A stretch of 64,000 nt of DNA from a phage: sequence record PZ445451.1; one strand, given 5' to 3'. The notes beneath the pieces were generated by a model. The model saw only the letters and a list, made by a program, of their open reading frames with translations, was not told where the DNA came from and did not search any database. Each line of letters begins with the position of its first letter. Position 1 is the stretch's first letter. Below are positions 3,618 to 6,870 of this stretch, piece by piece. The position numbers were made by a program, and so were the translations under genes.

Positions 3618-6392
3618 TTAGTTTATCAGTTTATTTATGTCTGGTAAAAGATTTATTTCACCTAAGAAATCACCTTCACCTTCCTCTAGCCAACTCTCAT
3701 ATGCTTGTGCATGATTATAGTTACCATCAAAAGAATCTGCAACAAATTTTTCTACAGTTTTTCGAGATGTGCCAGCGCCAAATACACCAAGTTTAATACT
3801 ATTGATCGGTAAAGTGGTGCTTGTTGGTACTTTCTCTGTTGCAACACGGTTGATATCTATAATCTCCTGTACGGTTGTGTTCCATTGTAAGCATTTAACA
3901 CAACGGGTATGCGCTACATACAGTAGGTTTCGCTCTGCCTCTTCCAGTCCTACCCATTCACCAGTTTTTTTATCATAATTGGAAGGAAAATCATTAGCAA
4001 CAATAACCTGATCCCACTCCAAACCTTTAGACTTGTGTGCTGTAGTCAATGTGACTTTTGCTGTAGGAGAATTTCTATGCGTTCTAAGTGTATGTGCTAT
4101 AGTGTTTGCCTTGCCAGAAACTACGATGTTTAACAAGCGTTTAGCATCTGGATCAGCCTCTGCACACTCAACAAATTCATTCCAGTCTGCGTAAGGTAAT
4201 ACAGTTTCATGTTTTACTTTCTCAATATCTCCTCTCCGAAGAGCATTAACACTATCTACCATAGAGATAAAATCCCTGGTATCTACGTTAATAATAATTT
4301 CTTCCCCATCTGCAATACGATCCATTGCCTCCATAAGCAAGGTTAAATTCTTGCGAAAGATGATAGTGTAAGGTTTTGTATAGTCTACAACATCTGATTT
4401 GTAGCTACCTACTACAGTATCAAAGCCTTTACCAACCAAAGGATGACGCAAAGGTTCTTTATCGCTTAAAATCATATTGGCAATGTTTGCCACTTTGGGG
4501 CCAAAACGGAAGCAAGCAGTTAATGGAAGCTCTGCCCCATACTTAGCTGTTTCAATCATCATATTAGAGCTACCTCTAAATTGATAAATGCAGTTGTGGC
4601 TAAGAATTTCATTGCCAAAGAAGTTAGCAGTATCCTCTACTTCAATATCATAATAGATACCCTCACTATCTACAATGTCCACAATCTCTTCTGCCGTTAC
4701 AGTATCACCATCTTTTACCAACACAGACATGCCTTTAAACAAACCCGCTGCCGGAATTAAGTTATATTTGGCACTGTTCACAGAGGACATGCATTCTTTT
4801 AAAGATGCAAACGGAACTATTTCAAGGATCTTTTGTGCAAAACTCAATGCTTCACGATAAGAATTGAAATATTTACGTACACGGTAACGACCTTCCAATT
4901 TAGCAGCACTTACGCTTACACCTGCTTTAATCAGTGAAGAATAGATCGGCATTTCACTTTCTGTCCACTCAAAACTAACTTGTGTTCCTTTACAACCTTG
5001 TGCTCGCAAAGTCACTGTTAGCATTTTTCTTTCATCTACTGCACAATTGATGCTGTGCCAGTGTGGATAAGCAAAATGATAATCTTTATCCTCTAAAAGT
5101 TTAAAACCATTTTGTCCGAATTGTTCAAAGATGTTATTGATCCTTTCTTGATTAATGCCGCGTGAACTTGCTTCAAATACACAAGTAGGAATGCCATATT
5201 GTAAACTGTATGCCATTTCTTTTTCCATAGCAGCTTCACGGTTTTCAACAATATCCAACACCCATAATTTCTGTGCTTTTTCAGAACGTGTACGTTGCCC
5301 CAGTTTAGAAAAACCTTCTTTATCATCGAATTTGTTAGTGATCCCTACTCGGAAACCTAAATCTTTCCTCCACATTAGGTATACCACCATCTGATCATCT
5401 TTCAGAACATAGGATGAAGCCCAAATACGATGGTTATGTGTCATATCTAAAGTTTTACCTGTGGCAGTAATAATATTCCTACCTTTTGTACGTGTAGATA
5501 AAGTCTTATTTGTTACTTTTCTAAATGTAATTTTACCATTAGAATAAGACTCTACCTTATCACCGATTTGTAGGTCTTTCATTGTAACCTGACCATTCTC
5601 GGTATTAAGTACCGTGTTTTCCGACACACATTGGAATTCATCGCCCACTACCACAATTTGTTTTGCAGATTTAGCATTTCGCAGAATAGACAAGAATGCA
5701 GGGTTAACATCCTGGAATTCATCACCAAAAATAATGTCATAACCAAGATCAGCACCTGATAACTCAAACAATTTTACATAGGTGTCATGCGTCATCAAAG
5801 TATCTGTGTTAGGATCAATGCGCTCTCGCCACAATTGTTTTGCATACTTAACTACTTCTGTAATTAGTTTGTGTTCGTTAATACCTTTTCTTTTAATATC
5901 TGCAAGATGTACACCAGGGAAATGTTTACGGCTGATAAAAGGATCATCCGAAAATTCAAACTTACCTACGGTTTGCTTGATCATTAAACCAATCATAGCA
6001 CGAGTTAAAAGTGTTTTCCCTCGTTTATCAATAAGATTATTAATCTTAAATTTCTTTGCTATCTCACTACCTGTACCTGCAACGTTAACATACTGTCCTT
6101 CTGGTCGTGACAGTTTTGCACGTAAACGATGATCCAGGAATTGATAGCAAATGGAATGCAATGTACGGCATTCTACATTTGGTGGCATCTTACGCCGTGC
6201 TTCTTCTGCCATGCTTTTATTGAAAGCTAAGTAAAGAATGCGATCTTCTGTACTGTTAGCCAGCAAATAAAGTGTTGACGTTTTGCCTGATCCAGATTTA
6301 GCTTGGATAGTTAAAAAACGATGGTCTGGAAAAGCCTCCTTAATAGCTGTTTGCTCTTCTGTTGGAGTAAAACTCAACTCTTTCTTAGCCAT
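3618..6392 (-). CDS. SF1 UvrD/PcrA-like DNA helicase, intein-containing precursor
   Basis: Track ORF; start moved to MAKKELSF (ATG 6392). Walker A AKSGSGKTSTL, motif II FGDEFQD, motif III GDEFQ|CIYQFRG split by an in-frame insert, C-terminal TTAHKSKGLEWDQVIV..LLYVAHTRCVK. Confidence 0.85.
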   Translation of the reverse strand: MAKKELSFTPTEEQTAIKEAFPDHRFLTIQAKSGSGKTSTLYLLANSTEDRILYLAFNKSMAEEARRKMPPNVECRTLHSICYQFLDHRLRAKLSRPEGQYVNVAGTGSEIAKKFKINNLIDKRGKTLLTRAMIGLMIKQTVGKFEFSDDPFISRKHFPGVHLADIKRKGINEHKLITEVVKYAKQLWRERIDPNTDTLMTHDTYVKLFELSGADLGYDIIFGDEFQDVNPAFLSILRNAKSAKQIVVVGDEFQCVSENTVLNTENGQVTMKDLQIGDKVESYSNGKITFRKVTNKTLSTRTKGRNIITATGKTLDMTHNHRIWASSYVLKDDQMVVYLMWRKDLGFRVGITNKFDDKEGFSKLGQRTRSEKAQKLWVLDIVENREAAMEKEMAYSLQYGIPTCVFEASSRGINQERINNIFEQFGQNGFKLLEDKDYHFAYPHWHSINCAVDERKMLTVTLRAQGCKGTQVSFEWTESEMPIYSSLIKAGVSVSAAKLEGRYRVRKYFNSYREALSFAQKILEIVPFASLKECMSSVNSAKYNLIPAAGLFKGMSVLVKDGDTVTAEEIVDIVDSEGIYYDIEVEDTANFFGNEILSHNCIYQFRGSSNMMIETAKYGAELPLTACFRFGPKVANIANMILSDKEPLRHPLVGKGFDTVVGSYKSDVVDYTKPYTIIFRKNLTLLMEAMDRIADGEEIIINVDTRDFISMVDSVNALRRGDIEKVKHETVLPYADWNEFVECAEADPDAKRLLNIVVSGKANTIAHTLRTHRNSPTAKVTLTTAHKSKGLEWDQVIVANDFPSNYDKKTGEWVGLEEAERNLLYVAHTRCVKCLQWNTTVQEIIDINRVATEKVPTSTTLPINSIKLGVFGAGTSRKTVEKFVADSFDGNYNHAQAYESWLEEGEGDFLGEINLLPDINKLIN
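4593..5630 (-). mobile_element. Intein (346 aa) inserted in helicase motif III
   Basis: Insert begins CVSENTVLNTENG (block A), has TxxH-like MTHNHRI (block B) and ends ..YYDIEVEDTANFFGNEILSHN followed by extein Cys. Removing it restores GDEFQCIYQFRG. Coordinates derived from track residue numbering (residues 268-613). Confidence 0.75.
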
Positions 6393-6393
6393 T

Positions 6394-6870
6394 TCAACCT
6401 CTCTTAATTTGTTTAACAAGCATAGGAACAAAATCTCGTTTTAAAATTTGTTCAATAATGTGATCAGGTAGCTGTTGGAAATTATAATTAAAAGCTACTG
6501 TCTCACCTTTAGGTGTTTCTACCCGCACATATAACATGTTACGAAGTTTATCCACTTGTGCTGTATATTCTAAACCACGTAATTGATGCATTGCAAACAT
6601 CAAATCATCAGGTTCAGTTTGGAATCTATCACTTGTCTGCATCAAGGATAAGGTAAAAGGTAGATTTTCCCTAAGAGCTACCTTCTTAGGCACTAATGAA
6701 GGGAAATACTCCCCAATAACTTCCTGTGTAAGCTGAATACACTCTTTTTCAAGCTGGTTTTGTTCCTTGAGTTCACAAACACTTTTTTGTAAAGTGTTAA
6801 CCTCTTTTTGCAAGGCTGCTAGTTGAGCATTTAACTTTCTTTTTTGATTACGACCAAAACGTTTAGACAT
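6394..6870 (-). CDS. Hypothetical protein (158 aa), coiled-coil N-terminus
   Basis: Track ORF; stop abuts helicase start. Confidence 0.55.
   Translation of the reverse strand: MSKRFGRNQKRKLNAQLAALQKEVNTLQKSVCELKEQNQLEKECIQLTQEVIGEYFPSLVPKKVALRENLPFTLSLMQTSDRFQTEPDDLMFAMHQLRGLEYTAQVDKLRNMLYVRVETPKGETVAFNYNFQQLPDHIIEQILKRDFVPMLVKQIKRG

Follow-up and report, generated by a model that had tools for sequence, protein, structure and literature searches.

What interrupts the helicase gene of this phage at one of its most conserved motifs, and does the interrupting sequence carry a homing nuclease? The window, meaning the whole stretch of 64,000 nucleotides that was analysed, matches Escherichia phage PaulScherrer (Bas60, GenBank MZ501100.1) at 100% identity. 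In that record bas60_0082 is annotated as an "intein-containing UvrD / Rep family helicase precursor", and mat_peptide features are given for both intein and helicase; the intein annotated in JohannJBalmer (Bas62, MZ501084.1) of the BASEL collection has the sequence of PaulScherrer's (PMC8594841). The intein call itself therefore adds nothing new, as the public phage record already has it. The intein of the PaulScherrer helicase is known, and the domain nested in it is unannotated in the GenBank record. In the BASEL paper (PMC8594841) the inteins are described as precisely identified through comparative genomics; neither its main text nor the MZ501100 record mentions the type of endonuclease domain or mobility. 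No second intein is annotated within the 64-kb window, and literature phrase searches for UvrD inteins found no paper.

The helicase gene lies on the minus strand. Counted from an upstream TTG, its open reading frame extends over 3618..6431; translation more probably begins at the ATG at 6392 (MAKKEL), the start that GenBank also gives, and the product then has 924 aa. The precursor is matched by the Pfam models UvrD-helicase (45.9 bits) and UvrD_C (42.3 bits), and also by AAA_19.

The gene is split at motif III by a 346-residue intein. The initial annotation had proposed that the motif is divided into GDEFQ and CIYQFRG by a segment with the hallmarks of an intein (Cys at position 1, a TxxH block, a terminal HN and Cys at +1). 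All of these are present, and the insert (CVSENTVLNTENG...NEILSHN) is in frame between ...VVVGDEFQ and CIYQFRGSS.... Its boundaries, 4593-5630, had been placed exactly, and better than those of the GenBank mat_peptide (4590-5630), which runs one codon too far and takes in Cys+1. These were plus-strand coordinates given with no strand; the intein is encoded on the minus strand. The boundary of the annotated intein is hereby corrected by one codon. The coordinates of all features are collected in Table 1.

Table 1. Features of the intein-containing helicase gene and its flanks (positions in the window)
Feature	Positions	Strand	Basis or remark
UvrD/Rep-family (SF1) helicase precursor, intein-containing, 924 aa	3618..6392	minus	ORF; Pfam; GenBank CDS bas60_0082 with identical coordinates
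N-extein, residues 1-254, ending in ...VVVGDEFQ (motif III, first half)	5631..6392	minus	collinear with intein-less alia and nieznany helicases
C-extein, from Cys+1 (4590-4592) and CIYQFRG (motif III, second half) to the stop codon	3618..4592	minus	
Intein, class 1 (Cys1 ... His-Asn), 346 aa	4593..5630	minus	indel of exactly 1038 nt against intein-less alleles
Hint N-terminal splicing part, intein residues 1-75	5406..5630	minus	TIGR01445/Hint/Hint_2 matches, residues 1-73
Middle sub-domain 1, residues 76-192, putative divergent GIY-YIG-like nuclease module	5055..5405	minus	VYLMW-x5-GFRVGIT ... R113..E117 ... E138
Middle sub-domain 2, residues 193-293, variable beta/alpha module, candidate DNA-recognition part	4752..5054	minus	AF2 (AlphaFold2)
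Hint C-terminal splicing part, residues 294-346	4593..4751	minus	TIGR01443 above cutoff, residues 327-346
Intein-linked flank haplotype, upstream part, -27..-1 nt	5631..5657	minus	candidate co-conversion tract / disrupted homing site
Intein-linked flank haplotype, downstream part, +1..+51 nt	4542..4592	minus	fixed differences

The residues expected of a splicing domain are all in place. Block A is Cys1 (codon 5628-5630, minus strand), the TxxH of block B is T64-H65-N66-H67 (5430-5441), the Asp of block F is D328, and block G is H345-N346 (4593-4598); the +1 nucleophile of the C-extein is Cys. In profile searches with the insert, Pfam Intein_splicing (E 3.9e-8) reached 33.7 bits, slightly short of its gathering score of 35.8, and Pfam Hint was also slightly short (29.1 bits, cutoff 29.7). 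TIGR01443 intein_Cterm scored 20.1 bits, over its cutoff of 15.6. Judged at the level of sequence, the matches of the insert to the splice blocks far exceed chance. The insert has the Hint fold, and its best structural matches are true inteins. Its N-terminal Hint part is predicted by AF2 to consist of beta-strands with pLDDT above 93. Across 87 family members C1, H67 and N346 never vary, and each of D328, N336 and H345 is kept in at least 90%.

The segment is very probably a bifunctional class-1 intein placed between the Gln and the Ser/Cys of motif III (GDxxQ/SIYxFRG; the slash marks the insertion point) in the PaulScherrer UvrD/Rep-like helicase. The intact splice residues, the viability of intein-plus phages and the conserved helicase suggest that it splices. 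In the proposed course the precursor would be translated as a single chain and Cys1 would start an N-S acyl shift. The thioester would then be attacked by Cys+1, and Asn346 would cyclise with the help of His345, His67 of block B and Asp328 of block F. This would free the 346-aa intein and ligate a helicase of 578 aa with a restored motif III (GDEFQ-CIYQFRG).

Between the two Hint parts lies the middle domain with its two sub-domains (modules 1 and 2). No significant family match to it was found in Pfam, NCBIfam or PHROGs. Among PDB sequences, a single-sequence search returned only weak Hint C-terminal matches and a profile search with module 1 returned no match, and Foldseek against the PDB found only Hint proteins, besides one spurious low-probability match. 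In the AF2 model, which was built on an alignment of 23 sequences (an alignment of 3 had given a pLDDT of 41), the in-frame middle domain folds confidently. Module 2 is modelled as strands and helices with pLDDT of about 84-95, and its last two strands (275-293) may already be part of the Hint fold.

GIY-YIG (PF01541) is the sole recurrent weak Pfam match of the middle domain: it was detected in 3 of 35 family members, with a best E of 0.09 and below the gathering score. Module profiles were compared by hhalign with home-made GIY-YIG targets (T4 SegA/B/C/F, I-TevII, a metagenomic GIY-YIG protein, I-TevI and UvrC). The match was collinear and statistically weak, both with an 8-sequence profile (global, P 0.021, probability 2%) and with a 5-sequence profile (local, P 0.002, probability 13.7%); the controls gave P 0.38 (T4 HNH MobB/C/D) and P 0.13 (reversed). 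The weak alignment places Y84 on the Tyr of GIY, R113 on the Arg and E138 on the catalytic Glu, and these three residues are invariant in the family. The position of the second Tyr, that of YIG, is held by an invariant Arg94 (RVG), and no conserved Asn of the middle domain aligns with the metal-binding Asn of GIY-YIG. Module 1 is under purifying selection (omega 0.075), with the family-invariant residues all retained. The AF2 model, the weak Pfam matches and the conserved residues suggest with moderate confidence that the middle domain combines a divergent GIY-YIG-like nuclease module with a variable module, the latter likely serving in DNA recognition.

The middle domain defines a family of about 1,360 clusters at 50% identity. 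The family surfaced in an exhaustive profile search; querying a word index with the intein had given only 2 matches. About 82 of the 87 full-length relatives sit at GDxxQ/C...HN/(S or C)IYxFRG in UvrD-family proteins, and nearly every host protein of the family has Ser or Cys at +1. Other relatives (P0002, P0062 and others) are free-standing. They have the Hint and middle-domain architecture without Cys1 and the terminal Asn, and their genes directly adjoin intact UvrD-like helicase genes, in which the +1 position is Ala. The middle domain may found a class of homing endonucleases carried by inteins that has yet to be described, with a divergent GIY-YIG-derived catalytic module and a fast-evolving recognition module in frame within a contiguous intein. 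Such a class would be specialised on motif III of SF1 UvrD-like helicases of bacteria and phages, and would have repeatedly yielded free-standing, splice-dead genes beside Ala+1 helicases. This broader reading is tentative, and we place it somewhat short of probable.

Related phages carry alleles without the intein. The initial annotation had recommended a comparison with such homologues, and the difference amounts to exactly 346 codons: in alia, KMB37, AV123 and inny, which are sister phages with about 98% nt identity, and likewise in nieznany, exactly 1038 nt are missing. Their intein-less site reads GDEYQ/SIYQFRG, and that of Phapecoctavirus nieznany reads GDEFQ/SIYQFRG. The +1 residue is Ser in the intein-less alleles, whereas it is Cys in PaulScherrer, and two changes in the N-flank, I→V and F→Y, are unique to the intein-free sister phages. 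In the phage collection (helicase records of at least 95% identity) the intein is present in 37 of 56 records and absent from 19. Since about one third of the sister phages are intein-free, homing may be inefficient, or their sites, with the altered N-flank, may be resistant.

By comparative data, the intein is mobile. The initial annotation had described inteins in phage replication proteins as mobile elements, and the insert does move independently of the host helicase gene. When PaulScherrer is compared with KP2025, an intein-plus phage of Klebsiella, extein identity is 73-78% and extein dS is saturated, whereas in the intein Hint-N is 94%, module 1 is 97.7% and Hint-C is 93% identical, with dS of 0.10-0.39. 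An intein identity of 93-98% against an extein identity of 73-78% in phages of E. coli and Klebsiella requires recent horizontal movement. Module 2 differs from the rest of the intein in this comparison, with just 74.6% nt identity to the KP2025 copy.

The flanks of the insertion point also differ between intein-plus and intein-less alleles. Comparing PaulScherrer with alia gives 53 differences in the exteins, 24 of them within -27..+51 nt of the insertion point (binomial P 1e-18). Among eight Justusliebigvirus genomes (four intein-plus and four intein-minus) the haplotype of these 78 flanking nt follows intein status without exception, its differences being fixed between the groups, and past +51 the eight genomes share an identical stretch of at least 39 nt. 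In the C-flank, Ser+9 and Ile/Val+13 are common to the PaulScherrer haplotype and KP2025; the intein-less states, Gln+9 and Lys+13, are common to the intein-less nieznany.

A homing cycle can be proposed on these grounds. The middle domain, acting in the free intein or in the precursor, would be the homing endonuclease, with the conserved module (residues ~76-192) most likely of a divergent GIY-YIG fold and the variable module at residues ~193-293. During co-infection, intein-less helicase alleles would be cut close to the motif III codons (the GAATATCAG/AGCATCTACCAG junction). Repair off the intein-plus allele would then transfer the intein and, with it, about 30-50 nt of the adjoining extein sequence. 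In principle the flank haplotype could also have been shaped by selection in favour of resistant sites instead of by co-conversion.

Of the alternatives, the one that survives best is a splicing-competent intein with a dead endonuclease, that is, a vertically inherited relic kept since its imprecise loss would destroy motif III. Such a relic would agree with the many close relatives that are still intein-free and with the non-canonical putative active site (RVG for YIG, no aligned Asn). However, the middle domain keeps every family-invariant residue, and the omega of module 1 is low. Vertical inheritance is also at odds with the KP2025 comparison, in which a closely similar intein lies between exteins of saturated dS, and with the sharply bounded flank haplotype that goes with the intein. 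On balance the relic is an unlikely explanation.

It is far less likely that homing depends on a nuclease other than the conserved middle domain, namely an in-frame LAGLIDADG or HNH enzyme or an out-of-frame or antisense ORF of the kind known from some actinophage inteins. Most inteins carry LAGLIDADG, and out-of-frame and antisense homing endonucleases have recently been described (preprint 10.1101/2025.01.02.630785). The initial annotation saw no LAGLIDADG motif and suggested an HNH-type or unknown endonuclease. The first point agrees with the Pfam searches, in which neither LAGLIDADG nor HNH models matched at E of 1 or below, and the structural overlap of PI-PfuI, PI-PkoII, PI-SceI and TliVMA, all canonical LAGLIDADG inteins, with the PaulScherrer intein is restricted to the Hint part (TMq at most 0.30). 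The HNH type is unsupported: residues 76-293 contain no invariant His, and the T4 HNH Mob profiles aligned no better than stated above. "Unknown endonuclease" came nearer, the best reading being a divergent GIY-YIG-like module. Alternative-frame ORFs do exist inside the intein, but they are short (61, 77 and 79 aa), whereas the in-frame domain has a confident fold and is conserved across the whole family.

Least credible of all is an insert that remains part of the mature protein, either as a non-splicing accessory helicase domain or as a bacterial intein-like (BIL) domain, since the insert splits an otherwise invariant motif (GDxxQ/SIYxFRG) with Cys1, TxxH, HN and the +1 nucleophile all present, is absent from functional phages of 98% identity with the motif intact (where the initial annotation would have expected a conserved segment if it did not splice), has Ser or Cys at +1 in nearly all hosts, the helicases beside free-standing copies having Ala there, most resembles true inteins in structure and contains a large nested domain, whereas BIL domains belong to variable regions of non-conserved proteins and usually have neither a +1 nucleophile nor a homing endonuclease.

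With the bifunctional intein as the preferred reading, the locus contradicts the published statement that no coliphage inteins have been reported. It also lends itself to measurements of intein homing, being a clean natural system in an E. coli phage that is easy to handle, with intein-plus and intein-minus alleles in near-identical records and a sharply defined candidate co-conversion tract of 78 nt. What merits the attention of specialists is the nested domain, as yet uncharacterised. Should it prove to be an active enzyme of the GIY-YIG type, it would add one more nuclease class to the short list of those inside contiguous inteins, and it would represent a new family of nucleases with long targets, directed at a helicase motif that is conserved universally.

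Inteins typically favour conserved motifs of replication and repair ATPases, and Novikova et al. (2016) catalogued 16 UvrD inteins from five bacterial phyla (PMC4760082). The PaulScherrer intein resembles these in its location in the P-loop ATPase core of a UvrD-family helicase; its host is a coliphage. With GIY-YIG enzymes (I-TevI, T4 Seg, the UvrC N-domain, Slx1) module 1 appears to share the beta-beta-alpha-beta-alpha core topology, an invariant Tyr in strand 1 (VYL), a second strand that contains xVG and is followed by a conserved Arg, and a helix past strand 3 that bears a conserved Glu, and the domain as a whole would share their modular layout of a catalytic and a variable part. It differs from them in its sub-significant sequence similarity, in RVG with the invariant Arg94, in the missing aligned Asn, and in sitting in frame inside a contiguous intein. 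To our knowledge, GIY-YIG enzymes have so far been reported with inteins solely as separate genes in fractured loci. Dassa et al. (2009) stated that GIY-YIG was not known in inteins (PMC2677866), and it is not among the in-frame intein endonuclease types of a 2025 survey (10.1101/2025.01.02.630785). The free-standing relatives, with Hint and middle domain but neither Cys1 nor the terminal Asn, resemble the yeast HO endonuclease, which is intein-derived and free-standing. Free-standing homing endonuclease genes classically adjoin their target gene, and the position of these relatives next to UvrD-like helicase genes resembles that of the T4 seg and mob endonucleases. Both likenesses concern relatives found elsewhere, whereas the PaulScherrer intein retains all of its splice residues.

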